Below, in pieces: positions 15,208-58,041 of a stretch of 64,000 bases of DNA. Under the pieces are notes generated by a model, which made no database searches, was not told where the DNA came from, and worked only from the letters and a program-made list of their open reading frames with translations. This DNA is from Oscillospiraceae bacterium (GTDB lineage: Bacteria; Bacillota; Clostridia; UMGS1883), in NCBI GenBank assembly GCA_015068735.1, contig SVJW01000002.1, positions 11,438-75,437 of the forward strand. Reading direction: 5' to 3'. Within the stretch, counting starts at the first letter, position 1; the number at the start of each line of letters is the position of its first letter. The position numbers and the translations under genes were made by a program.

Positions 15208-16746
15208 ATGAAAAAAATCAAGTTGATGGCTATTGCCGGTGTTTTGTGCTTGTCTCTTATTCTGACATCTTGTGCAAGCCTCGGCCTTAGCAAAAAGGAA
15301 TCCAAACCGGAAGGAACTATTTCATACTGGATGCCTCTGTCTGCTACCGATAAGGTGGAAATCAAGGATATGGCAAAAACTCCTCTTGGCAAGGCGTTGA
15401 AAGAAAGAACAGGTATAGATGTAGAATACATCCATCCTGACAGTGATGAACAGTTCAATCTTATGCTTGCATCCGGCGACCTTCCCGACATAATCCAGAC
15501 AAACTGGGTTACAGATTATCCCGGTGGCCCCGAAAAAGCAATTCAGGAAAAGCAGATTATCACATTTGACGAAATGATGGAAGAATATGCTCCCAACCTT
15601 ACAAAGTACCTTAAGGAACATCCGGAAATCGACAAGCTTGTTACAACAAATGACGGTAAGCACTATATGTTCCCCTTCATCAGAGGTGACGAGTATCTTC
15701 TTATTTCTCACGGTCCCGTTGTAAGAAAAGACTGGCTTGATGATTTGGGAATGGAAGTTCCTGAAACAATGGATGATTGGTACAATATGCTCAAGGCATT
15801 CAAGGAAAAAGCAAGTGGCGCACCCCTTACTACATATCTTCCCCTTGTAAACGGTATCTTCTCATCCGCATACGGTGCTCCCCAGGCTTTCTTCGTTGAT
15901 AACGGAGAGATTAAATACGGTCCTATACTTGACGGATACAAAGAATGTCTTATGGAACTTAACCGTTGGTATAAAGAAGGTCTTCTTGATAACAACTTCA
16001 TGGGCCTCGACTCAAAGATGATGGATAGTGCTATTCTTACAGGCGGAAGCGGTGCAACTGTAGGTTCTGTAGGTAGCGGTATCGGTAAGTGGATGGCTGC
16101 AGCCCAGGAAGAAGGTTATGAACTTGTAGCTGCTCCCTATCCTGTACTTAACAAGGGTGAAAAAGCAATGTTTAGTGCAAGACAGAATGCTGCACCCGGC
16201 TTTGGCGCTGCTATTTCTGCAAAATGTAAGAATCCCGAAATCGCTATGCAGTTCCTCGACTACTTCTACAGCGAAGAGGGTCTGATGCTTCTTAACTTCG
16301 GTATCGAAGGCGAAAGCTATGAAATGATTGACGGTTATCCCACATATACAGAACTTATAACAAAGAATCCTAACGGTAAGTCTATGGCTGCGATGCTCGG
16401 TCAGTATGCAAGAAGTGCAACACAGGCACCTTTTGTTCAGGACAGAAGATATATGGAACAGTATGCTTCACTTCCTCAGCAGAAAGATGCAATTGAAGTT
16501 TGGGGAAATACTGATGCTGACAAACATATTCTTCCTCCGTTAGCACCCTCTGCAGAAGAAAGCAGCGAGCTTGCAAAAATTCTCGGAGACGTAAATACAC
16601 ACGTGGAAGAATACACAACAAAGTTTGTAGCAGGACAGATTTCGTTTGATGATTGGGATAAATATATTTCACAGCTCAAGACACTTAAGATTGAAAGAGC
16701 AATTGAGATTTATCAGAATGCATATGATGTATATTCCGCAAAATGA
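15208..16746 (+). CDS. ABC transporter extracellular solute-binding lipoprotein, LplA/YtcQ family (oligosaccharide)
   Basis: 512 aa ORF with a signal peptide and the lipobox LTSCAS. This is the ~500 aa family-1 SBP type associated with LplB/LplC permeases. Confidence 0.8.
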   Translation: MKKIKLMAIAGVLCLSLILTSCASLGLSKKESKPEGTISYWMPLSATDKVEIKDMAKTPLGKALKERTGIDVEYIHPDSDEQFNLMLASGDLPDIIQTNWVTDYPGGPEKAIQEKQIITFDEMMEEYAPNLTKYLKEHPEIDKLVTTNDGKHYMFPFIRGDEYLLISHGPVVRKDWLDDLGMEVPETMDDWYNMLKAFKEKASGAPLTTYLPLVNGIFSSAYGAPQAFFVDNGEIKYGPILDGYKECLMELNRWYKEGLLDNNFMGLDSKMMDSAILTGGSGATVGSVGSGIGKWMAAAQEEGYELVAAPYPVLNKGEKAMFSARQNAAPGFGAAISAKCKNPEIAMQFLDYFYSEEGLMLLNFGIEGESYEMIDGYPTYTELITKNPNGKSMAAMLGQYARSATQAPFVQDRRYMEQYASLPQQKDAIEVWGNTDADKHILPPLAPSAEESSELAKILGDVNTHVEEYTTKFVAGQISFDDWDKYISQLKTLKIERAIEIYQNAYDVYSAK

Positions 16747-16769
16747 CAGATATAGAATGAGGTTTTACA

Positions 16770-17720
16770 ATGAAAAGAAATACTTCGGTGAATAATTCAT
16801 TACATAAAAAATGTTTTATTTCTCGACTTGGCAGGGATTTGTATAAGAACAAACTGATGTATTTGATGGTTCTCCCTGCGCTTCTGTTCTACTTTATATT
16901 TGCATATAAGCCAATGTACGGTGCAATTATTGCCTTCAAGGATTACTCTCCGTCGTTGGGAATAGAAGGAAGCCCCTGGGTAGGACTTAAGCATATTGAG
17001 GAGTTCTTTAAATCATTTTACTTTGACAGAACAATAAAGAATACCATAGTTATCAGTTTGGCATCTATTTTTATCGGTTTTCCCATGCCTATCATTTTTG
17101 CACTGCTGATAAACGAATTAAGGAATAAAAAGTTTGCTAAATGTGTCCAGACTGTTTCTTACGTTCCGCACTTTATTTCAATAGTGGTAGTTTGCGGTAT
17201 GATAAAGCAGTTTACACTGGATACAGGTCTCATAAATGACATCATAGCATTTTTCGGCGGAACAAGAGTGTCGATGCTGAATGATCCGGACTACTTTGTT
17301 CCCATATATACTTTGTCAAATATTTGGCAAGGTATGGGATGGCAGTCTATTATATATCTGGCAGCACTTACCTCTGTTGATTCCAGCCTTTATGAAGCTG
17401 CGGAGGTGGATGGAGCAAGCCGACTCAGGCAGGTGTTTACAGTTACATTACCTGCCATAGCTCCTACAATCGTTACCATGTTCCTTCTCAAGATTGGTAA
17501 CATTCTGAATGTAGGCTATGAAAAGATCATTTTGCTTTATAATCCCGCAACATATGAGACGGCAGACGTAGTTTCGTCGTATGTATACAGACAGGGTCTT
17601 CTCGAATTTAACTGGAGCTATTCTGCTGCGATCGGACTCTTCAATTCTGCGATTAACTTAGTGCTTCTTATTTCGGCAAACTATTTGAGCAAAAAAGTAG
17701 CAGATACTTCACTGTGGTAA
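16770..17720 (+). CDS. ABC transporter permease, LplB/YtcP-like
   Basis: 316 aa polytopic ORF with the EAA loop YEAAEVDGAS. Confidence 0.8.
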   Translation: MKRNTSVNNSLHKKCFISRLGRDLYKNKLMYLMVLPALLFYFIFAYKPMYGAIIAFKDYSPSLGIEGSPWVGLKHIEEFFKSFYFDRTIKNTIVISLASIFIGFPMPIIFALLINELRNKKFAKCVQTVSYVPHFISIVVVCGMIKQFTLDTGLINDIIAFFGGTRVSMLNDPDYFVPIYTLSNIWQGMGWQSIIYLAALTSVDSSLYEAAEVDGASRLRQVFTVTLPAIAPTIVTMFLLKIGNILNVGYEKIILLYNPATYETADVVSSYVYRQGLLEFNWSYSAAIGLFNSAINLVLLISANYLSKKVADTSLW

Positions 17721-17732
17721 GGAGATGAGATC

Positions 17733-18602
17733 ATGAAGAAAAAAATATCAGTTTTTGACATAATAAATTTCATCATATGTGGTTTGATAGGGCTTGTTTG
17801 CGTCTATCCGTTCTACTATGTTGTTATGGCATCTTTCTCAGATCCATCCAAACTAATGGGGCACAACGGAGTTCTGCTCGCTCCGCTCGATTCAACTCTG
17901 GGCGCTTATGAAGAGATTTTCAAAAACGAATTGTTGGTAGGAAGCTTCCGTAATACTTTTCTTATCCTGTTTATCGGTGTAGCATTAAGTATGATTGTCA
18001 CAACAATGGCTGCATACTTTTTCTCAAGAAAAGATATTATGCTTCAGAAACCCTTGTTCCTTTTGGTTCTGCTTACAATGTTTGTAAGCGGTGGTTTAGT
18101 ACCTCTTTATTTAACAGTTTGTGACCTTGGTATAGACGATACTTTATGGGCTGTTATTCTTCCGACGGCAGTATCAACCTATAACCTGATAGTGCTGAGG
18201 ACAGGGTTTATGTCGGTACCTGAATCTCTGATAGAATCGGCAAAGCTTGACGGAGCCAGCGACTTCACTGTCTTTTCGAAGATAGTGCTTCCTTTGTCAA
18301 AAGCACCGCTGGCGGTTATTCTGCTTTATTATTTGGTAGAAAACTGGAACTCTTGGTTCAATGCAAGTATTTTCCTGAGAGATAAATCGCTTTATCCGTT
18401 GCAGCTTGTATTACGTCAGATTCTTCTTTCAAATAATACCGATTCTATGATGGGCGGCGCTGACGTAGGTGACTACGAAAGCTTCTCGGAAACTCTTAAG
18501 TATGCAATTATCTGTATATCTACAGTTCCGATGCTTCTCATTTATCCCTTCCTGCAGAAACATTTTGCAAAAGGCGTAATGATAGGAGCGGTCAAAGGTT
18601 AA
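17733..18602 (+). CDS. ABC transporter permease, LplC/YteP-like
   Basis: 289 aa polytopic ORF with the EAA-like loop ESAKLDGAS and the RBS AAGGAG. Confidence 0.8.
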   Translation: MKKKISVFDIINFIICGLIGLVCVYPFYYVVMASFSDPSKLMGHNGVLLAPLDSTLGAYEEIFKNELLVGSFRNTFLILFIGVALSMIVTTMAAYFFSRKDIMLQKPLFLLVLLTMFVSGGLVPLYLTVCDLGIDDTLWAVILPTAVSTYNLIVLRTGFMSVPESLIESAKLDGASDFTVFSKIVLPLSKAPLAVILLYYLVENWNSWFNASIFLRDKSLYPLQLVLRQILLSNNTDSMMGGADVGDYESFSETLKYAIICISTVPMLLIYPFLQKHFAKGVMIGAVKG

Positions 18603-18648: not shown

Positions 18649-20670
18649 ATGAAAAAATTATTCAGCATTCTTCTTGCCATGGCGATGGCATTTACTCTTT
18701 TATCTTTGCCTGTAATGGCAAAACCCTATGTAGCACTTGATTCAGAACTTATGCCCGTTAAGGAAACTATTCTGAATCTTGAGTTTAATGACAGTGCAAA
18801 CAGATACTGGGGAAACTATGTCGGTGAATCCGGACTTTTCTGGAACAACGGTAGTGTTGGTGCTAACGCTGTTTCAGTAGCAGGCGGCACATTAACAAGC
18901 GGCAATTACCTCAATGTTACAGGCGAAATCTATATGCAGTTAAAGCATCCCTCCACCGGTGCAAACGGTTGGGCAGCAACTGCAGCAGAATACGATGTGG
19001 CAACAAATCCCCTTCGCGGCAGCTATGTAACAGAATTTAAGTTTATGCTTCCCTCATTGCCTACTACTGCAATGAAGAGCTTCTATACAGCTCATTCAAA
19101 CAGCGGAGAAGGCACATCCCACGGTCCCAAGCTCTGGGTAACAACAGGTGGTAGCCTTAATGCGTATACTACAAACGGCGCTGCTTTTACAGCTGCCTCA
19201 CTTACAGCAGGTACTTGGTACACACTCAAAATTGTGAACAACATTGATACTGACAGCTATGACCTTTACCTCAACGGTGTTCTTGTAGCAAACGATGCAG
19301 GATACTGTGACGGTAAGTTCTATGCAGATTCTTTCAGCAGACCTTTCATGATGAAAACTGAAGGAAACCCCGTATATATAGACGACCTTAAAATGTATAA
19401 GGAAGTTACCGGCAGACAGACTTTTGCTGCAGATGATTTCTCATCTTACAGCGCAGATGCTTCCTATAATTCTACTACAGAATTAAGAGAATTCGGTGGT
19501 TTTGCTCTTTATCCCAGAAACGGATATCAGGCAGGGGTTAAAATTGATGCAACAAACCAGCGTGCAGAATTCAGCTCCGGTGCTAACCTCTTTGCAGGCT
19601 TTGCAAAGACATGGAATCAGCCGGATAATACTCTTACAGATTCACTTATCGGTAAGAAGCAGGTTGCTGTAGAATTTGATTTCACCCCCTCAGCTGAAAC
19701 AGTAGGTGACTTTTACCAGATTACAGATGCTGTAGGAACACATTACGGTCTTATCCTTGCTGCAACAAACGGAAAAATTTCTGCAAAAATAGGTGCAGAG
19801 GGCGATGTTACTCCCGACAGCGCAAACAGAGGCGTAGACCTTGCTTCCTTTACTGCAGGAGAAACTTACAGAATTAAGGTATATGTTGACCTTGATAAGA
19901 AGTTTACACAGAATCTTATAGGAAACTCAACAGCATCTCACAACAAGGAACATACTCGTTCCGGTAAGGCAGATATATATATCGACGGTAAGCTTGTAGG
20001 TGAAGAACTTCCTCTTCGTTATAACTGTGGCAGCGCATCTAATGCAAGCTACGATATAACAAACCTGGGAAGACCTTTCGCTGCGTCCGGTGGTTCATCT
20101 GCAACATACTACATCGACAATATTGCTGTTTATACAGATGTAAGAGAAAAGGTTCTTTCATCAGCTCTTAATGCAGTTGAAAAGACTGTTTCCGAGAAGA
20201 CATTTACTCTTCCTTCCTCTACAGTTGACGGATATGCTATTACATGGGCAAGCGACAGCGACGCAATAGCAATTTCCGACAATACTGCTACAGTTACAAC
20301 AAGTGATGCAACACAGAAGGTAACCCTTACTGCAACCGTAGCTGATACGGCAGGAGAGCTTGCTGTATCAGGCAAAGTAGATGTTATCGTTTATCCCGAT
20401 TATGAAGTATTCGTAGGTATGGACGGCAATATCTTTGCCAGCACTATCTTCTACGACAACTATAATTCAGGCAAAACCGTAGATTTATATGCGGTACTTT
20501 ATAATTCCGACCTTAGTATGGAAAACTGTGTCGTAGTCGATAATGCAGTGAGCGGAAAAAGTAATCCTATTTCACTCACCCGCGGTGAAGGACAGACCAT
20601 AAGAATTTTTGTGTTCACAGACAATACTTTAGTTCCTGTGAAGTTTACCGAACTTAATTCTAAGAAATAA
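18649..20670 (+). CDS. Secreted protein with two LamG/concanavalin-like beta-sandwich modules and a C-terminal Ig-like domain; function unknown
   Basis: 673 aa ORF with a signal peptide (MKKLFSILLAMAMAFTLLSLPVMA). It carries two W-x-x-L-K-[IV]...[LI]Y-[LI]-[ND]-G LamG-like patterns and a Big-like C-terminus. The RBS is AAGGAG. Confidence 0.5.
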   Translation: MKKLFSILLAMAMAFTLLSLPVMAKPYVALDSELMPVKETILNLEFNDSANRYWGNYVGESGLFWNNGSVGANAVSVAGGTLTSGNYLNVTGEIYMQLKHPSTGANGWAATAAEYDVATNPLRGSYVTEFKFMLPSLPTTAMKSFYTAHSNSGEGTSHGPKLWVTTGGSLNAYTTNGAAFTAASLTAGTWYTLKIVNNIDTDSYDLYLNGVLVANDAGYCDGKFYADSFSRPFMMKTEGNPVYIDDLKMYKEVTGRQTFAADDFSSYSADASYNSTTELREFGGFALYPRNGYQAGVKIDATNQRAEFSSGANLFAGFAKTWNQPDNTLTDSLIGKKQVAVEFDFTPSAETVGDFYQITDAVGTHYGLILAATNGKISAKIGAEGDVTPDSANRGVDLASFTAGETYRIKVYVDLDKKFTQNLIGNSTASHNKEHTRSGKADIYIDGKLVGEELPLRYNCGSASNASYDITNLGRPFAASGGSSATYYIDNIAVYTDVREKVLSSALNAVEKTVSEKTFTLPSSTVDGYAITWASDSDAIAISDNTATVTTSDATQKVTLTATVADTAGELAVSGKVDVIVYPDYEVFVGMDGNIFASTIFYDNYNSGKTVDLYAVLYNSDLSMENCVVVDNAVSGKSNPISLTRGEGQTIRIFVFTDNTLVPVKFTELNSKK

Positions 20671-20732: not shown

Positions 20733-20758
20733 TTATGGAAGATTTTAGGAGAAAATTT

Positions 20759-21610
20759 ATGCGATACAGATTTTTAAGATTCCCCGGCGGAAAAGAAAAA
20801 GCAGTAACGCTCAGTTATGATGACGGAAAACCGGAAGATATCCGCTTTTCTGAAATCATAACAAGTTACGGTCTTAAATGTACATTCAATCTTAACTGTA
20901 AAAAACAGCGTGATGTTTTTTTGACTGATGAGCAGGTTCAGGAGCATTTTCTGAGTAAGGGTCACGAAATTGCGGTTCACGGGGCTTTGCATAAAGCAGA
21001 AGGTTGTATTCGTCCCATAGAGGGAATAACAGATATCCTTGAATGTCGGCTGGAGCTTGAAAAACGCTTTGGCAGAATTATTAAGGGTATGGCATATCCC
21101 GATACAGGCATAAATTTGTTCTCCAATAACGCTTCCTATGAATCCATAAAAAACTATTTAAAAGAGCTGGATATTGTTTATGCAAGAACAATAGACGGAG
21201 ACAATAATTCTTTTATGCTTCCCGATGATTGGTATTCTTGGACCCCCACAGCACATCACGGCAACCCCGAAATAATGGAATACATAGAAGAATTTAACTC
21301 AATCAATCTATCAAAAAGCACTTTCATGCCCGGCAGAGCCCCCAGACTTTTTTATATGTGGGGACACAGCTTCGAGTTTGAAAGAGCGAAAAACTGGGAC
21401 TTGCTCCGGAAAATTTCCGACAAGCTCGGTGGTAAAGACGATGTTTGGTACGCAACAAATATCGAGATATACGATTATGTAAATGCGTACAACAACCTTA
21501 GTTACAGTGCGGACGGCACAATGATTTATAATCCGGCATTATTTGAGATTTGGCTTGATATTGATGGTGAAACGTACAGTATCGCCCCGGGAGAAATGCT
21601 TAAATTATGA
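20759..21610 (+). CDS. Polysaccharide deacetylase (CE4 / NodB-homology domain)
   Basis: The RFPGGKEKAVTLSYDDG NodB motif 1 lies near the N-terminus. The second in-frame ATG (20759) has an AGGAG RBS; the first ATG (20735) has none. Confidence 0.6.
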   Translation: MRYRFLRFPGGKEKAVTLSYDDGKPEDIRFSEIITSYGLKCTFNLNCKKQRDVFLTDEQVQEHFLSKGHEIAVHGALHKAEGCIRPIEGITDILECRLELEKRFGRIIKGMAYPDTGINLFSNNASYESIKNYLKELDIVYARTIDGDNNSFMLPDDWYSWTPTAHHGNPEIMEYIEEFNSINLSKSTFMPGRAPRLFYMWGHSFEFERAKNWDLLRKISDKLGGKDDVWYATNIEIYDYVNAYNNLSYSADGTMIYNPALFEIWLDIDGETYSIAPGEMLKL

Positions 21611-21641
21611 GCGAGACTATATATTGACAGGAGTAAAGCTT

Positions 21642-24314
21642 ATGAAAAATAAAAGAATATTATCAATAGCGGTTTTAATGTGTTTGCTTATCAATATATG
21701 TGCATTTTCTTCAATTGTAACTGTTTCTGCAGATAATAATGCTATGGATGCCGATATTTTCAAAGGAAACAGTGAAAATGCATATGTGCTGTTGGATAAA
21801 CAGATAGAAGAAAACAAATGTGAATTTTTCGACGGAATGGAAATGGGAATTTCCGATACTGCGAATCCTTTATATAATGAAGTTTCTCAGGAAAACGGTA
21901 TAAACGGCAGAAAGTTTTACGCTGCAAATTTCTTGTCCGTAAAGCTTGATAAAAGTTTTGCATCAGCAGAAGATACTGAATTCCTTATAACAATTGTTTA
22001 TTATGACTACGGCCCGAAACAAGGTAGATTCTTTTTGGAATACTTTGACGAGTCGGGAAACCAGCAAACAAAAACTATCATAAAGCCCGGTAACATCCAG
22101 CGCTTTAATGCGGAAACTGTTTATGTAAGCAGTATGGATGTAAACAAAGCATTTGAAGATACCGGCGCTACATTGAGAATAAGAACAAACGGACAGAACC
22201 TCTTTAAAAGAGTTGAAGTTATAAACCTTTCAAAATTTAAAAGGGAAGGCAAACCTTTAAGTGAGCTTACGGCTATACCTTCCGATACTTCTCTTGACGA
22301 ATTGGTTTCATTGGGTATTGTTGATGAAACTTTGCAGAAAGAATTATCTGCAAATATGTCAGAGAATGCTACTATTGAAAAAGCATATAAACTCCTCTCA
22401 ATTATAAGTGGAGATGAAAATAAAGTCATTCCGGCAGAAGTTAACGGAAGCGATTCTATCACACAGGGAAAGATTCTTGAGTTGTATCTTGAAGCACTGG
22501 ATATAACTTCTGATGAAAAGGGCGCAGTAGAATGCGCTTTGGAAAAAGGACTTATAGATAAGTCGGATTTGTTTTTTGGCAATGATGTACCTGCTTGTAA
22601 TTACAATCTTGTAGAGCTTGTTTACAACGCTTTGTATTTTGCGAAGAGCGACGGGACATCGATGATGGAGGGGCTTCTTGCAAAGGACTTCTTCAGTGAG
22701 CAAGTTCTTAAGTCAGACGAATCTCTGATTGCCCTGACATATAAATATCCGAAAAAAGTTCCCTATCAGACAATCAGAGAAAACGAGACAGGACAATCCT
22801 ACTATTATATGAATATATGTAACATTCCCACGATAAGAACATATGTTACTGCACAAAGCTGGACAAACGACGGTAAAAGTTTTGTTTGCGGATTTCAGTC
22901 GGGAAGAATGTTCCTTTACAATACCGAAACACAGATGCTTGTATACATAGACCAGACTTCAGCATCTACTCAGTTAAATGCAGTTGTGGGTACGGACGAT
23001 TATATATATTATGTAAAAACAGATGCAGAAGGAAATCAGGGATTATGGAAAGCGAATCTAAAGGAAGCTCCCATAAAGCCTGAATTTATATGCAATTCAG
23101 TTCACAGTTACAGCCTTGGACTGGTACACATCACAAATGACTGTAAATACATTTCCGCAGAAATGTACGCTCCGGGAAATACCAGAGAAAGTATAAGCGG
23201 AAGATACAGTATTGATGAACAGAAATGGGTTACTTACAGACATCCCACATTCCCGTATTCGCCTGCAAGAACTCACGATATAATAAATCCCGAATACCCT
23301 AATATTATGGCTTTCTGTCATGAAATCACAGGTGTTGGTGCTATCAATCTTTATGACAGAATATGGCAGGTTGATTTAGACACAATGACAGCACAAAACG
23401 TGTTCAAGCAGGGTACAAGACAGGGCGCAGGCTCCATAGCTCTTCAAGGTGCAACTCACGAAATATGGTCAATAAACGGTGAATATATGTATTTCATCAC
23501 CTACGATATGCGTGAATATAATCAGGATCCCATCGGAGCCTCTCCGGCAGTTGTCAGATTTGATAAAGACGGCTCTCACAGAAAGTATTACTATACAAAA
23601 GACTCAGTTGTTCACGAAAACAAGCACTGTGCACCCAGCGGTGATGACAAGTATGTGGTTGCTGACGGTGACTATGTAGTAATTATAAGCACAGAAACAT
23701 GGGAAACATTCCCCATTTCAAGATACGAGTGGAACGGAAAGACATCACATCCCTATCATGGTCATGCGGTTATTGCAAGAAACCACTATAAGGTAAACTG
23801 GGGCGGACAGGATAAGTACGGTATGCTTGGCGTTAAATGGTTTGATTTTACCGAGCTTGTTTCCTCTCAGGCAAAAGGCGGTTACTATAACATGGGTGAA
23901 AATGTTACTCGTGCAAGCTATGAAGGATTGGAATGTGAAAGCGGAGTAACAAATATTAAAGGAAAAGAAGCAATTTATGCAAAGAGCGGAAAATCAATAT
24001 TTGTTGATATATCCGAGGACCTTATTGACACCGACAACGGAAAGATTAAGTTAAGTTTTGATTATCTTGATAACGGAACAATGCCGATAGATATTATTTA
24101 CACATCAGGTGTAAATACAGACAACGACCGTTACAGAATATTTGACAACAAGGAAAGTATTGTTCGCACAGGAACAAACAGATGGAAACATGCCGAAGTA
24201 GTGATTTACAGCGGTAACTTTGAAGATATAGGAAAGTTCAATACCGATTTGAAAATTAATGGACAGAGTGCATATGTTTATCTGTCAAATGTCAAGGCAA
24301 CTATTGTTGAGTAA
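21642..24314 (+). CDS. Large secreted protein with a beta-propeller-like repeat region (TolB/PL22-like blades); candidate polysaccharide lyase
   Basis: 891 aa ORF from the ATG with an AGGAG RBS, with a signal peptide (MKNKRILSIAVLMCLLINICAFS). Blade-like repeats occur, e.g. TNDGKSFVCGFQSGRMFLYNTETQMLVYID. It sits in the rhamnogalacturonan utilisation context. Confidence 0.45.
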   Translation: MKNKRILSIAVLMCLLINICAFSSIVTVSADNNAMDADIFKGNSENAYVLLDKQIEENKCEFFDGMEMGISDTANPLYNEVSQENGINGRKFYAANFLSVKLDKSFASAEDTEFLITIVYYDYGPKQGRFFLEYFDESGNQQTKTIIKPGNIQRFNAETVYVSSMDVNKAFEDTGATLRIRTNGQNLFKRVEVINLSKFKREGKPLSELTAIPSDTSLDELVSLGIVDETLQKELSANMSENATIEKAYKLLSIISGDENKVIPAEVNGSDSITQGKILELYLEALDITSDEKGAVECALEKGLIDKSDLFFGNDVPACNYNLVELVYNALYFAKSDGTSMMEGLLAKDFFSEQVLKSDESLIALTYKYPKKVPYQTIRENETGQSYYYMNICNIPTIRTYVTAQSWTNDGKSFVCGFQSGRMFLYNTETQMLVYIDQTSASTQLNAVVGTDDYIYYVKTDAEGNQGLWKANLKEAPIKPEFICNSVHSYSLGLVHITNDCKYISAEMYAPGNTRESISGRYSIDEQKWVTYRHPTFPYSPARTHDIINPEYPNIMAFCHEITGVGAINLYDRIWQVDLDTMTAQNVFKQGTRQGAGSIALQGATHEIWSINGEYMYFITYDMREYNQDPIGASPAVVRFDKDGSHRKYYYTKDSVVHENKHCAPSGDDKYVVADGDYVVIISTETWETFPISRYEWNGKTSHPYHGHAVIARNHYKVNWGGQDKYGMLGVKWFDFTELVSSQAKGGYYNMGENVTRASYEGLECESGVTNIKGKEAIYAKSGKSIFVDISEDLIDTDNGKIKLSFDYLDNGTMPIDIIYTSGVNTDNDRYRIFDNKESIVRTGTNRWKHAEVVIYSGNFEDIGKFNTDLKINGQSAYVYLSNVKATIVE

Positions 24315-24328
24315 AGGGTGAAAACATT

Positions 24329-26089
24329 ATGAAAAAGTATTTAAAAAGTATTATCAGCCTGATTTTGGTGGTATTGCTCCTTGCAAGTCCCGTTTATGCT
24401 TCCGGCTCGGATGACACTATGCAGGCAGACTGGCGTGGAGATTATACCAACATGAACCTTATAATAAAAGTAAAATCTCCTGTTCCTTATATACAGAATG
24501 TAACTGTAACGATGTATCCCAAGGGCGCAACCCCCGGCTTTGATACATATTGCCGTGTAGATGAGGTTACTTTTAGCGGCAGGGAGGAAAAGGAAATCAT
24601 CATCAAACTGGCGAACGACCTCAATGCACCCAACGGTGAATACACAGTTGTTCTTCAGGGAAACGGTGCTTACGATTCCGAAAAGAACCGTGCAGAGATT
24701 GATGTGTGTGTTCTTTCTCCTAACAGCGTGGGAAGTCTGCTTAATCAGATTAACAGCGTAACAGGTGACACAGACGAAAGTCTTGCAAACTTGAAAACCT
24801 ATATGCAGCAGGCTGCAGCAGCATTGAGAATTGACGGTGTTGACGCTGCCACAAACAGTCAGCTTAAGACTGTTATCAATGTGAGAAACATCGATTTCGC
24901 TACAAACGGAAGTAAGTTCTTAAGCCTTAATGATGTGGAAAACGCATGGAGAGCAACAGGTCTTATTGAATATCTTAATCAGGAAAACATTAACGGCACA
25001 CAGCTTGAAACAGAATATAAAGCGGTTGCAGGCATTATGTCCATTGATATGACTGATGATGATTATGCTAAGGTAAAAACATCGCTTTACAATAATATAA
25101 TCAGTATGAGAACAGCCTTTAACAACAATAATGGTGTTCAGACATTGAAAGATGCAGAGAAAATATTCAATCAGGCAAAGGCAGTTGCCGTCGTTAACTC
25201 CTCGTCGGTTGATGATATGGAGGATGCAATCGTAAAGTATAAAGCAACACTTGAAATAAGTGACACAACATACAACACTTTCGCAAGACATTCATCGGAC
25301 AATAGAGAGAAAATAATGAGACAGCTTGTTAATAAGAATTTCCAGACAGCAAGCGCAGTAAAAGAGGCATTCTCTACTGCTGTATCAGGCGCAGGTGAAC
25401 CCGGTGGCGGTAACGGCGGTGGCGGAGGAGGCGGCGGTTCGTCCGACGATGACGACGATTATCCCACCGAAAACCCCGGAAGCCTTGGCGGTAATCCCGA
25501 CAGTATTCCTGCCGTTCCCTCTGATACACCATCTTCAAACGGTGTATTTTCGGATGTGAACGGCAACCATTGGGCAGCAAACTACATATCTGTTCTTGAA
25601 AAAGAGGGTATAGTTTCAGGATATGCCGATGGAAGGTTCTACCCTTCAAATACAGTAAAGAGAGAAGAATTTGTAAAAATGGTAGTTCTCGCATCGGGAA
25701 TGTACACGGCAGGACAGAACTGTAATTATGATGATGTAAGAGAAGAAGAATGGTATTTCACATACATTGCTTCCGCAAGTCAGTCAGGAATTGTTAACGG
25801 TATCGGCAACGGAGTGTTCGGTATAGGAAATAATATCACAAGAGAAGATGTTTCGGTAATTGTAAACCGCATCTTACTCAGCAAAAATGTAACTCCCGCG
25901 AACCCCGGATTTCTTAAATTTACCGATAATGCACAAATCAGTGATTACGCAAAAGAGAGCATTAAGAACTTATCAGCACTTGGAATTCTCAGCGGTTTTG
26001 AGGATGGTTCTTTCAAACCGAAAGCAAACCTTACCAGAGCTGAAGCTGCCAAGATAATATTTATGCTCAAAGATCATATCAGCAGATAA
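24329..26089 (+). CDS. Cell-surface protein with three C-terminal SLH (S-layer homology) repeats
   Basis: 586 aa ORF with a signal peptide, an N-terminal Ig-like region and a Gly/Asp-rich linker (GGGNGGGGGGGGSSDDDDD). Three SLH motifs follow (FSDVNGNHWAANYISVLEKEGIVSGY..., YDDVREEEWYFTYIASASQSGIVNG..., FTDNAQISDYAKESIKNLSALGILSG...). Confidence 0.7.
   Translation: MKKYLKSIISLILVVLLLASPVYASGSDDTMQADWRGDYTNMNLIIKVKSPVPYIQNVTVTMYPKGATPGFDTYCRVDEVTFSGREEKEIIIKLANDLNAPNGEYTVVLQGNGAYDSEKNRAEIDVCVLSPNSVGSLLNQINSVTGDTDESLANLKTYMQQAAAALRIDGVDAATNSQLKTVINVRNIDFATNGSKFLSLNDVENAWRATGLIEYLNQENINGTQLETEYKAVAGIMSIDMTDDDYAKVKTSLYNNIISMRTAFNNNNGVQTLKDAEKIFNQAKAVAVVNSSSVDDMEDAIVKYKATLEISDTTYNTFARHSSDNREKIMRQLVNKNFQTASAVKEAFSTAVSGAGEPGGGNGGGGGGGGSSDDDDDYPTENPGSLGGNPDSIPAVPSDTPSSNGVFSDVNGNHWAANYISVLEKEGIVSGYADGRFYPSNTVKREEFVKMVVLASGMYTAGQNCNYDDVREEEWYFTYIASASQSGIVNGIGNGVFGIGNNITREDVSVIVNRILLSKNVTPANPGFLKFTDNAQISDYAKESIKNLSALGILSGFEDGSFKPKANLTRAEAAKIIFMLKDHISR
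25397..25460 (+). repeat. Simple-sequence GGC/GGT (poly-Gly) then GAC/GAT (poly-Asp) codon run encoding the linker of the SLH protein
   Basis: ggtggcggtaacggcggtggcggaggaggcggcggt...gacgatgacgacgat, a low-complexity nucleotide tract inside the CDS. Confidence 0.6.
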
Positions 26090-26105
26090 GTAGGAGGTAA
26101 ATAGT

Positions 26106-28757
26106 ATGAAAAATTTTATAAATAGACTGTGTACCTTGCTGCTTGTAGTAGCTCTGGTGTTATCAGGCAATGCAGCTTTTGCCGATAATACCGAAGTTGT
26201 ACCGGAAAACAGCTTTGTACCAATGACATCACAGGAATTCAGTGCACTTAAGGGAATGAATCTTCTTACTGATACATTAGTTAATGCAAGTGCAAACAGT
26301 ACAGTAACAAGAGCTGAGTTTTTAGGCGCATTGTTCAAAATCACAGGATATTCAGAGATAATAACGATGGAAGAGCCCTTTGTTGATGTAGATAGTGCTA
26401 CACCCCATTATGATGCAGTATCCTTTTTCTATAATACAGGCGTTATAAAAGGAACAAGCTCAACCACATTCAGTCCTTATAACACAATCAGCTGCCGTCA
26501 GGCGGTTACTGTTCTGATTAACTTCCTCGGATACAGGACTACAAGCCGTGTGAAGTCCAATTCCGAATCCGAATATTTGGAAACGGCTTATAAATACGGC
26601 TTGTTAAAAGGTGTCAAGGCGGATTCCTTTGACAGACCTCTTACAGCAGAAACTGCCGTAGTACTTTTATATAACTGTGCTACTGCAGATCTTGTTGAGG
26701 TTTCATCCTATAACGGAAACGGGGAGGCAACAATCCATATTGACAAAGACAGTTGCATCCTTACAGACTATCATTCGATCTATTACGGAAGAGGAATAAT
26801 AGGCGTTTCTGTTAATGGGGAACTTCAGTTAGAAGAAAAAATTTCAATAGACGGAAAGGTATATTTTACAGGAGGAAAAGACTTTTCCGAATATCTCGGA
26901 TATAAAGTAAAGTTCTTTTATAAAGCAGACGGATCTGACAGAACACTTTTGTGGGTGAATCCCGAAGCAGTCAACAGCGTTCTCACTATAGACAGCGAGG
27001 ATCTTCTGATAAATGACCGCGAGTATAACTATGATAAAATTATATACAAGGGAAAAGGCGAAAAGAGAACTGAAGCAAGGGTTAATTCCTATGCGGATAT
27101 AGTTTATAACTACGCCCTTTGCAATAATGCAACCCTGGATATGATAAAACCAAAGGTGGGTAACATCACTTTGGTGGATAATAACAACGACGCCATTTAT
27201 GATACCGTTGTTATAAGAGAGTATCAGAACTTGTTCGTTTACGGTACTTCCCTTGACGAAAACTTTATTGCGGACAGATATGGAAATCCTGTTGACCTTG
27301 ACGATTATAAGTTTGTTAAAATCATCAAAAACGGAGAAGAAATCCAGATTGGTAACATTAATAATAACTGCGTAGTTTCATACCTTGCAAGCCCCGATAA
27401 AAAGTATCTTTACCTTTATGTAAATGATGCCGGAGTGAAAGAAAAATTAGTAAGCGTAACAACAGAGCCCGATGAAACTATGTATGAATTTGAAAGCGGA
27501 GAATATTTTGTTTCCAAGACATTAGATCAGGTTATTGCTGACGGTAATTACTTCGTTCCGGAGCTTAGTCCGGGAAAAACATACTGGTACTATCTTGATG
27601 TAACAGGAAGAATTGCAGCCGTAACCGAAGCAAACGATGATACCGAGCAGTATGCTTACCTGATTGAAATACATGAGCCGGTTTCATCCAGAAGCAGAGG
27701 TAAAGTTGATCTGGAACTTGTTCTGAAGGACGGAACTCAAACATTTATAGAAACAGCAAAGGAAATAACAATTGACGGGGTTGAAGACCTGCCCGGAACA
27801 ACTCTCTCTCTTGGTGAAGTAGGTGAGGTTGTAAAGCTTTCCTTTAATAAAGACGGTGAGGTAAAATCAATTGACTTTGCCGATTCTCTTGATGAAACGG
27901 CACATCCTTTCGGCTTTGACAAGACAAACTTCACTCTTGATTATCCCGAAATAAATGAACTCTATTACCGTAATTACCTGTTTGGCAACAGATACGCAAT
28001 CGGTGCAGACACAGTTTGCTTTGCGGTATTTACAAATAAAGACGGTACAAAAGAATATGATGTTATTGCGATGAACGCTATACCGAGCAATGCAACATAT
28101 ACTAATCTTATGATGTACGATTGTGACGAATATCGTAACATTGGTGCTTTGGTTATTCCGCTTAACCGTCGTGACAGATTCTTCTCAGGACATATTCTTG
28201 TAGATAATATAAGATATGTGCTGGATGAAGAAGATGACGAATATTATACTCAGATAGTAGGTCTTGTTGGAGGCAAGGAGGTTTCATACACTGTTAAGGA
28301 CGAAGACGAAGTTCTTGAAGGAATGAGTCTTAAACGCGGTGATGTAATCCGTTGCTCCACCTACGAGAATGTAGTTTATCGCGTAGAGCTTTTATGCAGA
28401 TTAAGTAACGAGGATTCTCCGTTAATTGACACAACAATCCTTGGAAGCCAGTCTGACTCAAAAGTATTCGGATATTTGTATTCCAATGACGGTAACAACA
28501 TCGTTTTGTATAATCCTGACGGGTGGAAATACGGTGGAAAGTTATTGGTGACAAGAGCAATTACACCGCTGGCAAACTTAAGTATTTCAGTATATGACAA
28601 AAAGACAGATACTGTATATACCGGAAGTGCAAAAGATTTGTATAATACATCGGCACCGCAACTTGACGGAAGCATTTTCCTGGAAGAACATGCAACGAAA
28701 GTGTTTATATGGAGAGAAAATACAACTGTCGGTGAAATTATCGTTGCACATTATTGA
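26106..28757 (+). CDS. S-layer-type protein: signal peptide, three N-terminal SLH repeats, large uncharacterised C-terminal region
   Basis: 883 aa ORF with a strong RBS GGAGG. The N-terminal SLH repeats include FVPMTSQEFSALKGMNLL..., FVDVDSATPHYDAVSFFYNTGVIKG... and FDRPLTAETAVVLLYNCA.... Confidence 0.7.
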   Translation: MKNFINRLCTLLLVVALVLSGNAAFADNTEVVPENSFVPMTSQEFSALKGMNLLTDTLVNASANSTVTRAEFLGALFKITGYSEIITMEEPFVDVDSATPHYDAVSFFYNTGVIKGTSSTTFSPYNTISCRQAVTVLINFLGYRTTSRVKSNSESEYLETAYKYGLLKGVKADSFDRPLTAETAVVLLYNCATADLVEVSSYNGNGEATIHIDKDSCILTDYHSIYYGRGIIGVSVNGELQLEEKISIDGKVYFTGGKDFSEYLGYKVKFFYKADGSDRTLLWVNPEAVNSVLTIDSEDLLINDREYNYDKIIYKGKGEKRTEARVNSYADIVYNYALCNNATLDMIKPKVGNITLVDNNNDAIYDTVVIREYQNLFVYGTSLDENFIADRYGNPVDLDDYKFVKIIKNGEEIQIGNINNNCVVSYLASPDKKYLYLYVNDAGVKEKLVSVTTEPDETMYEFESGEYFVSKTLDQVIADGNYFVPELSPGKTYWYYLDVTGRIAAVTEANDDTEQYAYLIEIHEPVSSRSRGKVDLELVLKDGTQTFIETAKEITIDGVEDLPGTTLSLGEVGEVVKLSFNKDGEVKSIDFADSLDETAHPFGFDKTNFTLDYPEINELYYRNYLFGNRYAIGADTVCFAVFTNKDGTKEYDVIAMNAIPSNATYTNLMMYDCDEYRNIGALVIPLNRRDRFFSGHILVDNIRYVLDEEDDEYYTQIVGLVGGKEVSYTVKDEDEVLEGMSLKRGDVIRCSTYENVVYRVELLCRLSNEDSPLIDTTILGSQSDSKVFGYLYSNDGNNIVLYNPDGWKYGGKLLVTRAITPLANLSISVYDKKTDTVYTGSAKDLYNTSAPQLDGSIFLEEHATKVFIWRENTTVGEIIVAHY

Positions 28758-28794
28758 TGCAGAAAACCGAAATTGGTTATAAAAGGTGATTACT

Positions 28795-31431
28795 ATGATT
28801 AAAACAAACAGAAATTTTATGAAGACTTTGTTGCTCACGACGCTTCTTATTCTGAGTTTATCTGTTAATGTAGCAGCTGATTCCGAAAGTGATTGGAATA
28901 CTGTGTATACTCAGAATTTTGAAGGCGTGGATGACGGTCTTGTTACAGATGGAATAACTAACGAAAATGAATCCTTTTCAGCTGAGATACAAGGAGAAGC
29001 ACTGGAAATGAAATCTGACGCCCTCTGCTATTACAGAGTGCAGGATCCTGACCTTGACAGTCTTAACTGCGAAGAAAACTCCCACGGTATAGAAGTATGG
29101 ACATACGGAAACAGGTGGGTGTGTTCAGAACTTAGTGAACCTGTGAATGGGGTTTATTACTCGGGAAGTAACACTAACGCATTGCTTGTTAAAGAACAAG
29201 GCGGTCTTAATTCATTGGGAACAGTTCTTGTAAAGACAAGTTCCAGCATAGCCAGAACAAACATTATGTTCAACGTTGACAGTTCTATGTTTAAAAGCAC
29301 AGATACTGTTGCCATAAGAGTTAAGTATTATACTCCTGACGGAAAAGACAGACTGCGTATAACCTATCCAAATGCATCTTCCAGCAGTACAGGCTCTTTA
29401 TACGACACGGGAAAAAGCGGTGCAACAGGCGAGTGGCATACAGTAACCAAGACTCTTGAAGGAGCTGACTTTACAAGAAAGGCTCACTCTGACTATACTT
29501 TCAGAATTTTTGCTGACCAGACAGGTACCAATGGTGAGGGTATGGTATTTATCCACAGCGTTGAACTGTACAAGGTAGGCGAAACTGCTATTGATGAAAG
29601 TGCTGAAAATACTGTTTTTGAGCAGGAAATAGCAGAAGATCAGATTTACGGTAACGCAAGACTTACCTACGATCTTACATTCCATGCAGGAATCCCCTGT
29701 GCAGAGGGTTGCAGTCAGGATGATGAGTGTGTAGTAGCAGAATATAATACAGGAAAGAACAGAGTTTCTTTTAGCCTTGCTGATAGTAACAGCGTAGAAT
29801 TTGCTTCAATACAGTACGACCTTGACGAAACAGATGCTTCTATTTATGCTCTGTCCACCGACGAGAACGGTGATGAAGAAAGAATTCTTCTTTACAGCGG
29901 AGATATTGCTGATGCGTGTCTTACTTATACGGTTACTCTTAATATGAAAGAGAGTACCTATACTGTAGAAATAGCAGATAACGGCACTCCGCTTACTCTG
30001 GAAAATGACGGTCCAATCCCTGTTTGCAACAAGGATGAACTCGGTCTTTACTGTAATGCAAAATACATACGAATTAACCATAATCAAGCCTCACACGCGC
30101 TGCTTTACAGAGTGGACAATATTATAGTTGAGGGTCAGGTTGACGCAGATTATGAAAAAGCGGCTACAGACCTTGACAACATCACTCTTGATGAGCTTGT
30201 AAAAGATGATTTTACACTTCCTTCTGAAGGCTCTGTAAACGGAAGTGAAATCTACTGGACCTCCTCAGATTCTGCCATTGAAATCAGCGGAAATACGGCA
30301 ATTGTAAGCCGCGGAGAAGAGGATATAACCGTTACATTGCGTGCAGAAGCGACCTGTAACGGTATGACTGCAGAAAAAGAATTTTATGTTACTGTAAAAT
30401 CTTTTGAAGGGGTTTATTTTGAAGTTTCAGAATGCTCCGGAAGAATTGAAAGTGACGGTACAATTACAGCAGAAGCTACTGTAATGCATCCCGGTGTAAC
30501 AGGCGCAACTTCGGTAACTTTCGTAGTATATTCAATAGACAGCAATACCGGTAAAATCTGCAATGTGGAATATATTACAAAACCTGTTACATCCACATAC
30601 GGGGAAATGAGCTTCGGCCCTGTAACAGGAATGGCTGCAAACGGTGGAAACAGCGTAAAATGCTACTTATGGGACAATAACAACAAATCTCTTGTGAACA
30701 ACAAGCCTGGAGTAAGCGATATTAAATCCGAAAGCAAGGTAAAAGGCGCAGGTATTTCATGGAAAGGATATGACGACAATAACGCCATAGACTATTATGA
30801 AATTTTCAGAAACGGATCAAAGATTGCAGAAATTCCTGCAAACGGCGAGGAAATGAAATACCTTGACACCACAGTTACCGGAAGTAACAACACTTATTCA
30901 ATCGTACCCGTAGATACAAATATGAATAAGGGTGCTGTAGCCACAGACAGTGCAAAATGCGGAAAAATTCCCATGACATACTACCTGTCTCCGGAGGGCG
31001 AATCTGAAACTGAGATTAACGAAAACGGTAACGGTATTGAAATGCTTATCAAAACCTCCGATTCAAGTGCAGGATATACTGTATTTGATCCGGACGGAAG
31101 AAAGATTCCCTCGGGCAAATATCTTCCGCTTGTGATTTCAACCAACGCGCCCAAGAGCGATCTGGTTATACAGTTTACATACAAGGCTGCAGCAGGAACT
31201 AAATTGCAGTTCTTATACAACTATCAGGTTATGGAAAATCAGGGCGAATCATACACCGTAAAGGCATCGGATATAGGTAAAGGTTGGATGGTATTCACAG
31301 TTAAGCTTGTTGGCATTACTCTTGAATACAATAACGGAAGAATGAATAACGCTCACTTTGCACTTCAGGCGTTAAACGGTGAGATTATTGTAAATAAGAT
31401 TGAAATGATAGAAATATCCAAGTATGAGTAA
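28795..31431 (+). CDS. Large secreted protein with Ig-like and fibronectin-III-like modules; function unknown
   Basis: 878 aa ORF from the ATG with RBS AAAGGTG, with a signal peptide (MIKTNRNFMKTLLLTTLLILSLSVNVAA). It has an FN3-like segment (GISWKGYDDNNAIDYYEIFRNG...TYSIVPVD) and a Big-like segment (ITLDELVKDDFTLPSEG...SSDSAIEISGNTAIV). Confidence 0.5.
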   Translation: MIKTNRNFMKTLLLTTLLILSLSVNVAADSESDWNTVYTQNFEGVDDGLVTDGITNENESFSAEIQGEALEMKSDALCYYRVQDPDLDSLNCEENSHGIEVWTYGNRWVCSELSEPVNGVYYSGSNTNALLVKEQGGLNSLGTVLVKTSSSIARTNIMFNVDSSMFKSTDTVAIRVKYYTPDGKDRLRITYPNASSSSTGSLYDTGKSGATGEWHTVTKTLEGADFTRKAHSDYTFRIFADQTGTNGEGMVFIHSVELYKVGETAIDESAENTVFEQEIAEDQIYGNARLTYDLTFHAGIPCAEGCSQDDECVVAEYNTGKNRVSFSLADSNSVEFASIQYDLDETDASIYALSTDENGDEERILLYSGDIADACLTYTVTLNMKESTYTVEIADNGTPLTLENDGPIPVCNKDELGLYCNAKYIRINHNQASHALLYRVDNIIVEGQVDADYEKAATDLDNITLDELVKDDFTLPSEGSVNGSEIYWTSSDSAIEISGNTAIVSRGEEDITVTLRAEATCNGMTAEKEFYVTVKSFEGVYFEVSECSGRIESDGTITAEATVMHPGVTGATSVTFVVYSIDSNTGKICNVEYITKPVTSTYGEMSFGPVTGMAANGGNSVKCYLWDNNNKSLVNNKPGVSDIKSESKVKGAGISWKGYDDNNAIDYYEIFRNGSKIAEIPANGEEMKYLDTTVTGSNNTYSIVPVDTNMNKGAVATDSAKCGKIPMTYYLSPEGESETEINENGNGIEMLIKTSDSSAGYTVFDPDGRKIPSGKYLPLVISTNAPKSDLVIQFTYKAAAGTKLQFLYNYQVMENQGESYTVKASDIGKGWMVFTVKLVGITLEYNNGRMNNAHFALQALNGEIIVNKIEMIEISKYE

Positions 31432-31452
31432 TCTTTGAAAGAGGGATTATAT

Positions 31453-39811: not shown

Positions 39812-39839
39812 AAGCAATATCAGAAAGGACAAAAGCACA

Positions 39840-41252: not shown

Positions 41253-41267
41253 AAGGGAAGAATTTGT

Positions 41268-43768: not shown

Positions 43769-43778
43769 TAATCAGCAT

Positions 43779-44648
43779 ATGAAAAAAATAGCATTGATAC
43801 AAATTATATTGGCAAGCATATTGTGGGGAACATCAGGAATTTTTGTTCACTATCTGGCACCTTACGGGTTCACTTCGTTGCAGATGACCTTTTTCAGAAG
43901 TGTGGTTTCCTGTATATGTTTGGCTTTATACATTTTAATTTTCAATAAAAAATTATTTAAGGTAACATTAAAACAATTACTGCTCTTTACAGGAAGCGGT
44001 TTGTCGTTCTTTCTTACGGCGACCTGTTACTTTTATTCCATGCAGGCTACATCAATCTCAACAGCTGTTGTTCTGATGTATACAGCTCCAATATTTGTAA
44101 TGATATATTCGGTAATGTTTTTAGGGGAGAAACTTAATCCCAAAAAAGCTGTTGCCGTTTTGACTATGTTTGTGGGATGCGGACTGGTATCGGGGATAAT
44201 AGGTGGGCTCAAATTTGATGCAATGGGCATTGTAATAGGATTTATGTCGGGAATAGCGTACAGCGCATATAATATTCTGACAAAAATCGAGATGAAAGGC
44301 AACAGTAACCCATTGTCAGCAACGCTGTATTGCTTTTTATTTGCCACATTGATAGGGGCTTTCACCTGTGGCATTGGGGACATACCGCAAAGTATAGGAA
44401 AAGCTCCTCAAATCACTGTGCCGCTTGTTATAGGAATGGGGCTTGCGACTTGTATATCACCTTATTTCTTATACACTCTGGCAATGAGGAAAATTCCTGC
44501 AGGAACGGCATCCTCCCTTGGAATTATAGAGCCCATGGCAGCTACTCTTTTCAGTGTTATAATATTTGGAGAAACATTGTCGGTAGCTTCTGTCAGCGGA
44601 ATTGTGTTGATACTCGGTGCAGTATTTTTGCTTAGCAAAAGTGATTAA
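43779..44648 (+). CDS. EamA/DMT-family transporter (10 TM)
   Basis: 289 aa ORF with ten hydrophobic helices arranged as two EamA repeats. Confidence 0.75.
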   Translation: MKKIALIQIILASILWGTSGIFVHYLAPYGFTSLQMTFFRSVVSCICLALYILIFNKKLFKVTLKQLLLFTGSGLSFFLTATCYFYSMQATSISTAVVLMYTAPIFVMIYSVMFLGEKLNPKKAVAVLTMFVGCGLVSGIIGGLKFDAMGIVIGFMSGIAYSAYNILTKIEMKGNSNPLSATLYCFLFATLIGAFTCGIGDIPQSIGKAPQITVPLVIGMGLATCISPYFLYTLAMRKIPAGTASSLGIIEPMAATLFSVIIFGETLSVASVSGIVLILGAVFLLSKSD

Positions 44649-51858: not shown

Positions 51859-51879
51859 TATTAAAGGACAAGTGATACT

Positions 51880-58029: not shown

Positions 58030-58041
58030 AGGAGACGTAAA

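Follow-up and report, generated by a model that had tools for sequence, protein, structure and literature searches.

In Bacillus subtilis, rhamnogalacturonan I (RG-I) is handled by a system comprising the polysaccharide lyases (PL) YesW and YesX of family PL11, the importer YesOPQ, the glycoside hydrolase (GH) family 105 enzymes YteR and YesR, and the esterases YesT and YesY. PL11 enzymes are eight-bladed, Ca2+-dependent beta-propellers. The system follows a simple logic, in which an extracellular lyase acts first, an ATP-binding cassette (ABC) importer takes up the products and a cytoplasmic GH105 enzyme trims the unsaturated galacturonic acid (GalA), acetylesterases also being present. Across gut and rumen Firmicutes genomes, GH105 genes which lack a recognisable lyase partner constitute a gap in the prediction of pectin use. 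A GH105 gene is also found in the stretch of DNA analysed here, 64,000 nucleotides of contig SVJW01000002.1 from Oscillospiraceae bacterium (assembly GCA_015068735.1), referred to as the window. The subject of this analysis is a second gene of the window, at 21642-24314 on the + strand, whose product, a secreted multidomain PL22-like protein of 890 residues, is a concrete candidate for a lyase filling that gap, with predicted catalytic residues. The same logic of extracellular lyase, import and cytoplasmic trimming is proposed for this locus, although the candidate lyase is not a PL11 enzyme and the locus has partners anchored by SLH domains that B. subtilis lacks. All coordinates given are positions in the window, and genes lie on the + strand unless stated otherwise.

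Closest to the candidate among known systems are the PL22 oligogalacturonate lyases (OGLs), such as YeOGL of Yersinia enterocolitica (PDB 3PE7) and VPA0088 of Vibrio parahaemolyticus (3C5M), described in Pfam by PF14583. The candidate shares with them the propeller fold and homology at the profile level, keeps the equivalents of R217, H242/E243, H192, H287, D300, H353 and H355, and presumably has in common with them a metal-assisted beta-elimination on a uronate. Canonical OGLs, however, are cytoplasmic, bare propellers of approximately 390 amino acids, whereas the candidate is secreted and adds to its propeller a jelly-roll, a helical domain and a C-terminal beta-sandwich. It carries His703 where YeOGL has Gln350, and sits in a cassette with SLH proteins, thus probably acting on polymers rather than on imported disaccharides. 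Its predicted location, its size, its domain architecture, one putative metal ligand and its genomic setting set it apart from all PL22 enzymes characterised so far. More distant parallels are found in PL24, PL25 (the ulvan lyases) and PL42, which are likewise beta-propeller lyases with a catalytic histidine, some acting next to rhamnose and yielding products that feed GH105- or GH88-type hydrolases. These families are treated as metal-independent, while the candidate retains the PL22 His cluster which binds Mn2+ in 3PE7. The catalytic site of FoRham1, a PL42 lyase cleaving between rhamnose (Rha) and glucuronic acid, shows no metal, and PL24 has the same catalytic residues (PMC8377490).

With a probability of roughly 0.65, the candidate is read here as a PL22-lineage uronate polysaccharide lyase that is secreted and depends on a metal, and whose substrate at this locus would be acetylated pectin, either RG-I or homogalacturonan. 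It is probably the missing enzyme making unsaturated fragments for the neighbouring GH105 enzyme, because it is a clear distant relative of the OGLs with catalytic and metal-binding residues apparently intact. A preliminary description of the window had proposed a beta-propeller lyase that feeds GH105, and the profile searches, Foldseek, hhalign and residue conservation all lend computational support to that proposal in the form of a divergent PL22 variant.

Homology, fold and predicted active site

When compared alone with Pfam and NCBIfam, the candidate returned nothing useful, the only Pfam match being one of 14 bits to WD40_CDC20. A search of 5.8 billion clustered proteins yielded 28 relatives, with 31-100% identity, which were aligned to form A1; most are approximately 880-900 amino acids long and none carries a precomputed Pfam domain. 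The A1 profile, searched against all PDB sequences with hmmsearch, gave significant matches to PL22 oligogalacturonate lyases only, namely 3c5m (E 3.4e-9) and 3pe7 (E 4.2e-8), across residues 377-622. An AlphaFold2 model of the whole protein, built with A1, has a mean predicted local distance difference test (pLDDT) score of 87.5 and a predicted template modelling (pTM) score of 0.75. The propeller that the preliminary description had read from the sequence is predicted in this model with high confidence at residues ~372-745 (22755-23876), with approximately 28 strands, consistent with seven blades; the peptide TNDGKSFVCGFQSGRMFLYNTETQMLVYID quoted in that description falls within it at residues 408-437 (22863-22952). 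This part of the protein is annotated as a PL22-like catalytic domain on the basis of the profile, Foldseek and hhalign comparisons.

The structural comparison recommended in the preliminary description placed PL22 on top. In a Foldseek search against the PDB, 3pe7 ranked first (E 3.3e-17, template modelling (TM) score 0.77 normalised to the 376-residue 3pe7 chain, root-mean-square deviation 3.9 over 408 columns) and 3c5m second (E 1.1e-16, TM score 0.74). The next best matches, to G-beta, spliceosomal WD40 and TolB propellers at around 1e-9, were seven orders of magnitude behind. For comparison at the profile level, seven diverse PL22 proteins from plasmid records of enterobacterial, Vibrio, haloarchaeal, Asticcacaulis and Pseudoalteromonas origin were aligned as A2, and hhalign of A1 against A2 returned a probability of 99.1% and an E value of 1.5e-18 over 313 columns, pairing residues 375-717 of the candidate with 11-364 of PL22. 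Among the propeller lyases that had been put forward as precedents, PL22 is therefore the one to which three independent computations (profile, Foldseek and hhalign) each point, while PL11, PL24 and PL25 do not apply, since none of them is among the 50 best Foldseek matches. No PL11 chain was found among the PDB profile matches at E<=10 either, and PL24, PL25 and PL42 are likewise missing from both the PDB profile matches and the 50 best Foldseek matches, the candidate keeping a His cluster of PL22 type.

The residues of the active site can be compared directly with those of YeOGL, as the first A2 protein aligns to 3pe7 gap-free over 1-386 and A2 numbering is consequently YeOGL numbering. Columns invariant in 7/7 PL22 references include H192, P197, E208, R217, H242, E243, G249, H287 and D300. 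The pairs formed by hhalign (candidate-YeOGL) are H545-H192, P550-P197, E561-E208, R573-R217, H606-H242, E607-E243, G613-G249, H662-H287, D675-D300, H706-H353 and H708-H355. Candidate residues aligned with PL22 sites are invariant or almost invariant, both in the 28 close homologues and in approximately 160 distant representatives, the latter counted in a hidden Markov model (HMM) alignment of the retrieved sequences. Arg573 (23358-23360), aligned with Arg217 of YeOGL by hmmsearch as well as hhalign, is present in all 28 close homologues and in 151 of 157 sequences of the wider family. His606-Glu607 (23457-23462) is matched to His242-Glu243 by the same two methods, His606 being found in 28/28 close and 161/161 wider members. 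Aligned by hhalign, His662 (23625-23627) corresponds to His287 and occupies 27/27 non-gap positions in A1 and 156/158 in the wider family, while His545 (23274-23276) corresponds to the PL22-invariant His192 (151/157). In the wider family, H708 is conserved in 158/158 and D675 in 154/157; the H706 position is His in 100 and Gln in 50, and the H703 position His in 120, Asp in 13 and Asn in 13. The motif H703-P-Y-H706-G-H708 (23748-23765) faces Q350-V-T-H353-P-H355 of YeOGL, with H706 and H708 placed by hhalign; H703 is taken to replace Q350 because the spacing of the two motifs is identical.

In YeOGL, Abbott, Gilbert and Boraston are said to have proposed H242 as the Bronsted base (J Biol Chem, 2010), and H287, H353, H355 and Q350 reportedly bind Mn2+, neutralising the carboxylate of the uronate. 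The PDB title of 3pe7 confirms the manganese. Invariant columns which coincide in two families of approximately 16% identity are strong evidence for what would be a shared catalytic site. The alignments indicate that the catalytic and metal-binding residues of PL22 are kept in the candidate and suggest the geometry of its metal site. H662, H706 and H708 align with three PL22 histidines, with H703 in the place of Q350, and together they would form the kind of metal-coordinating cluster for which the preliminary description advised looking.

The candidate belongs to a sizeable, unannotated family. A full HMMER search with A1 across 1.84 billion cluster representatives (clusters at 50% identity) recovered 532 clusters at E<=1e-3, of which 277 remain at E<=1e-10 and 151 at E<=1e-30. 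Many of these relatives combine the propeller and the C-terminal sandwich (query 372-884) in other architectures, ranging from 360 to 1744 amino acids. Three distant relatives exceed the Pfam gathering score for PL22 of 30 bits: P0090 with 49 bits, P0163 with 39.2 bits and P0111 with 34.3 bits. P0090 (locus L014, 554-2128), a protein of 524 amino acids consisting of the propeller and C-terminal sandwich, matches the candidate's family at E 1e-89, and all three appear from their sequences to be intermediates joining the candidate's clade to canonical PL22. As distant members pass the PL22 score while 0/28 of the close family do so, the clade is regarded as a divergent branch tied to PL22 through these intermediates rather than as an unrelated propeller. 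Descending from PL22 but failing the curated Pfam model, it may merit a CAZy family or subfamily of its own without being categorically new. Genome-bearing matches all originate from metagenome-assembled genomes (MAGs) of Clostridia, the sources named for them being roe deer and water deer rectum, goat caecum, dairy cattle colon and the Hadza human gut.

Domain architecture and the four-gene cassette

The open reading frame (ORF) of the candidate runs from an ATG at 21642 to a stop codon at 24312-24314 and encodes 890 residues by translation. The preliminary description, which gave a secreted protein of 891 amino acids, agrees with this reading and counted the stop codon in the length. The ATG, preceded at a distance of 8 nucleotides by a Shine-Dalgarno-like GGAG (21630-21633) read from the sequence, is a credible start. 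An alternative, longer ORF starting with TTG at 21543 overlaps the upstream CE4-like gene, which ends at 21610, and is not a likely start. P0001, which has the same sequence (100% identity), is recorded as a "hypothetical protein" in a Ruminococcaceae/Oscillospiraceae MAG. Read by eye, the N-terminus of the candidate, MKNKRILSIAVLMCLLINICAFSSIVTVSA followed by DNN, looks like a Sec-type signal peptide of residues 1-30 (21642-21731) with a basic n-region, a hydrophobic core and a predicted cleavage site VSA/D. The AlphaFold2 model places a helix at residues 3-23, with a stretch of low confidence at 20-36.

Following this signal helix, the model is made up of a beta-sandwich (~45-195), a helical domain (~196-371), the propeller (~372-745) and a second beta-sandwich (746-890). 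The observation that the N-terminal 400 residues match no known family holds at the sequence level, where the Pfam, NCBIfam and PDB profile searches are all empty for this region; a separate model of residues 40-372 (pLDDT 90.4) shows two domains. The first of these (21774-22226), identified by the domain model and Foldseek, is a beta-jelly-roll resembling carbohydrate-binding modules (CBMs), with weak Foldseek matches (E 4e-5 to 1e-3) to CBM16, CBM22, CBM28, CBM29 and an accessory domain of GH50. A domain of the 881-residue aBig_2 protein encoded nearby is related to this jelly-roll (hhalign 89%, E 2e-6), residues 95-198 of the candidate (21924-22235) resembling residues 158-266 of the latter (29257-29583). 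This common module might serve in glycan binding or in docking of both proteins. The second, helical domain (22227-22754) is modelled as confident helices with no Pfam or PDB match and no informative Foldseek match. It was considered as a degenerate SLH domain, of which nothing is detectable by hhalign against the SLH partner family (probability 0.7%), and Pfam detects no SLH domain in the candidate. The C-terminal beta-sandwich (23877-24311; pLDDT 89-97) accompanies the propeller in most relatives, whose matches cover query 372-884. As possible duplicates, the N- and C-terminal sandwiches give a weak hhalign signal only (probability 14.6%, E 0.0018).

Directly downstream of the candidate gene lie three genes that form with it a conserved cassette (21642-31431). 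Partner 1, SLH586 (24329-26089), is a secreted protein of 586 amino acids with three C-terminal SLH domains (Pfam SLH E 6.5e-40). Partner 2 (26106-28757) is a secreted protein of 883 amino acids with an N-terminal SLH domain, present in 24/24 aligned members; for its remaining ~700 residues, sequence searches of Pfam and the PDB were empty even when made with a profile of 24 sequences. Partner 3 (28786-31431) is the secreted aBig_2 protein of 881 amino acids, assigned by Pfam, which shares the beta-sandwich of the candidate's N-terminus. Conservation of this arrangement was assessed by tblastn with the window proteins in seven contexts from assemblies and 31 loci from GTDB species genomes. Of the 29 loci that extend at least 2 kb further downstream, 23 have an SLH586 homologue directly after the candidate's homologue; where at least 8 kb is available, homologues of SLH586 and the 883-residue protein are both present in 18/22 loci and all three partners in 16/22. 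The order is fixed, with the PL22-like protein followed by a protein of ~580 amino acids with three C-terminal SLH domains, one of ~885 amino acids with an N-terminal SLH domain and a large aBig_2 protein. The cassette was seen in L009, L011, L013, L016-L020, L023, L026-L029, L033-L037, L039, L041, L042 and L046, and has the look of an apparatus anchored at the surface, not of an enzyme acting alone. The main bodies of the partners have no Pfam or PDB match.

Several MAGs hold between 2 and 5 diverged copies of the candidate's gene, mostly with the partner cassette. One uncultured Oscillospiraceae MAG has five (L035, L036, L038, L039, L042) and a Candidatus Ornithomonoglobus MAG four (L027, L029, L030, L033), while the copies at L026 and L032 are adjacent on one contig. 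Such multiplicity recalls polysaccharide utilisation loci and points to specificities that have diversified. Monoglobus pectinilyticus, a species with a name like that of the Candidatus Ornithomonoglobus MAG, specialises in pectin.

Proposed function and alternatives

In the proposed mechanism, a transition metal (Mn2+ or similar) would be held by His662, His706, His708 and His703, by analogy with YeOGL, and would neutralise the C6 carboxylate of the galacturonate in the +1 subsite. His606 would then take the C5 proton with the help of Arg573, and the O4 glycosidic bond would be eliminated, so that the newly formed non-reducing end carries a 4,5-unsaturated uronate. The enzyme would act extracellularly on the polymer or on large fragments, aided by its CBM-like N-terminal module and C-terminal beta-sandwich, and would probably operate with the two SLH-anchored proteins and the large aBig_2 protein encoded directly downstream. 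The adjacent ABC transporter would take up the unsaturated oligosaccharides, and the YteR-like GH105 enzyme, the GH106-like rhamnosidase and esterases would trim them in the cytoplasm. Acetylated pectin would be the likeliest substrate, most probably the RG-I backbone (at the Rha-alpha-1,4-GalA bond) or homogalacturonan. Homology, fold, residue conservation, secretion signal and synteny come from the analysis itself, and catalysis, metal, substrate and complex formation are deductions.

The context in the window fits pectin, and probably RG-I in particular. The GH105 gene (11545-12627, - strand), divergently placed upstream, encodes a YteR-like unsaturated rhamnogalacturonyl hydrolase (Pfam Glyco_hydro_88 E 7.5e-110) which matches YteR of B. 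subtilis (PDB 1nc5) at E 9.7e-99. The importer (15208-18602) consists of a lipoprotein solute-binding protein and two permeases (Pfam SBP_bac_1 and two BPD_transp_1), and homologues of its binding protein recur beside other members of the candidate's family. Beyond the cassette follow a secreted GDSL esterase of 811 amino acids (31435-33870; Pfam Lipase_GDSL_2), similar to the pectin acetylesterase PaeY at an E value of 1.4e-16, far below the curated NCBIfam cutoff, and a cytoplasmic GH106-like protein of 1135 amino acids (34264-37671; Pfam Glyco_hydro_106 E 2e-26), resembling alpha-L-rhamnosidases and matching the BT4145-type rhamnosidase of NCBIfam at E 3.6e-31, below its cutoff. By eye, the N-termini of the candidate, the esterase, the SLH proteins, the aBig_2 proteins and the binding protein look exported, and those of the GH105, GH106-like and CE4-like proteins cytoplasmic. 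No other polysaccharide lyase domain was found in any other window ORF of at least 150 amino acids, nor a second member of the candidate's family within the window.

Several observations weigh against this reading. The PF14583 model has no match at E<=1 to the candidate or any of the 28 members of its close family, and identity to the solved PL22 enzymes is just 15-17%. The fourth metal ligand is His rather than the Gln of YeOGL, and varies between His, Asp and Asn within the family. Literature searches on the active-site residues of YeOGL and on secreted or divergent PL22 enzymes in Clostridia returned nothing relevant. Canonical PL22 members are cytoplasmic, exo-acting enzymes on di- and trisaccharides, so that activity of the candidate on polymers is an extrapolation. 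Some related loci contain unrelated glycosidase genes (GH38, GH109-like, raffinose-synthase-like), and the paralogues there may therefore have other substrates. In addition, the link between lyase and GH105 drawn in the preliminary description is contextual; the YteR-like gene is present in the window, but GH105 lies within 10 kb in just 7 of the 30 related loci of at least 12 kb.

These last two points bear most directly on the main alternative, that the candidate is a PL22-type lyase for a non-pectic uronic-acid glycan, only loosely connected with the nearby GH105 gene, the polymers considered being glucuronate-containing arabinogalactan or gum side chains, bacterial exopolysaccharide, alginate- or ulvan-like polymers and host glycans. 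Such an assignment is rather unlikely, although it would account for the 23 loci lacking GH105, for the diversified specificities suggested by four or five cassettes in some MAGs, and for the glycosidase genes just named, together with sialidase-like/BNR genes, near relatives elsewhere. The M81 peptidase, amidohydrolase and ceramidase-like genes downstream in the window do not fit pectin either. Against it, the GH105 enzyme of the window matches YteR, an RG-I-specific enzyme, at 1e-98, the esterase and GH106-like protein resemble enzymes of pectin and RG-I, and PL22 chemistry is established for galacturonate. Co-occurrence of GH105 with the family looks enriched, if far from universal. The gene is in or beside the operon in L009, L016, L018, L019, L020, L023 and L040, lying immediately upstream of the candidate's homologue in L016 and in the same co-directional gene run in L009, and loci of the closest clade keep it in the operon. 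More distant members are adjoined by GH28 and 2-keto-3-deoxygluconate (KDG) pathway genes, with GH28, SDR and MR_MLE genes in L011 and KDG-kinase-like and aldolase-like genes in L012.

A different chemistry and a non-catalytic role are both less likely in view of the conservation pattern. That the PL22-like metal/His site serves another carbohydrate reaction, such as hydrolysis, epimerisation or de-esterification, seems improbable. Propeller active sites have switched before, the former GH145 family, containing both rhamnosidases and lyases, having been renamed PL42 (PMC8377490), and the candidate combines large sequence divergence from PL22 and one changed metal ligand with conserved residues of its own family that are absent from PL22 (N549, Q590, R639, D643 and R647). 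However, the whole PL22 constellation of base His, Arg, HE(x)W motif and three His ligands is under strong purifying selection across ~160 representatives, and the genomic association with GH105 and KDG-pathway genes suits lyase products. Very improbable is a glycan-binding or scaffolding propeller of TolB/WD40 type in an S-layer-anchored complex, for despite the CBM-like modules, TolB and WD40 propellers among the Foldseek matches at ~1e-9 and the tightest genomic partners being SLH-anchored proteins rather than enzymes, PL22 enzymes lead every non-catalytic propeller by the seven orders of magnitude noted above and the catalytic residues are conserved, with invariant His, Arg and Glu at exact PL22 catalytic and metal positions, which would be unexpected in a scaffold.

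For the preferred reading of a secreted PL22-lineage lyase, a further step can tentatively be contemplated. It is possible, if somewhat doubtful, that the candidate is the catalytic subunit of an undescribed four-gene apparatus for glycan degradation on the cell surface of gut Clostridia, constituting a new PL family or subfamily and the first extracellular, polymer-active enzyme of PL22 type with a His-coordinated transition metal. Abbott et al. are said to have proposed in 2010 that such metal sites belong to cytoplasmic pectate lyases, with Ca2+ sites in the secreted ones. A secreted protein with a transition-metal site would, if true, run against that idea. Should the family prove active, PL22-type chemistry would no longer be confined to disaccharide cleavage in the cytoplasm but would include depolymerisation outside the cell, the creation of a new family or subfamily in CAZy would probably be justified, and the annotation of carbohydrate-active enzymes in fibre-degrading Clostridia would be improved. 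The three "dark" surface proteins conserved alongside it would then be flagged as components of a Gram-positive system that captures and degrades glycans.

Further genes of the window

From 15208 to at least 39811 all genes are on the + strand with short intergenic gaps. Preceding them is a gene for an AraC-family regulator of 746 amino acids (12828-15068), containing HTH_18 and HTH_AraC, with homologues in related loci. Between the importer and the candidate lie genes for a secreted aBig_2 protein of 673 amino acids (18649-20670) and the cytoplasmic CE4-like deacetylase (20735-21610), both assigned by Pfam; the former shows, besides aBig_2, faint matches to a sialidase-like CBM and a 3-keto-disaccharide hydrolase, and is without family assignment. 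Following the GH106-like gene is one for a cytoplasmic protein of 707 amino acids without family assignment (37688-39811), with a sub-threshold GH20b-type N-terminal domain (E 0.0016). PDB searches with the 673-, 707-, 881- and 883-residue neighbours singly, and with profiles of the last two, recovered just SLH and aBig_2-type accessory domains.

Directly downstream and co-directional, at 39756-44648, are genes for an M81 (MlrC-like) peptidase, an amidohydrolase, a ceramidase-like protein and an EamA transporter. Such functions do not suit pectin breakdown and could indicate amide-decorated substrates or a separate operon. Further along, at 50875-63454, is a second locus of sugar-acid type, without a recognisable lyase, which includes another GH105 gene (58836-59957), three GFO/IDH/MocA oxidoreductases, an enolase-superfamily protein, a CN-hydrolase, a xylose-isomerase-like TIM barrel and a glucosamine-6-phosphate-isomerase-like protein, together with an AraC regulator and an ABC importer of its own.

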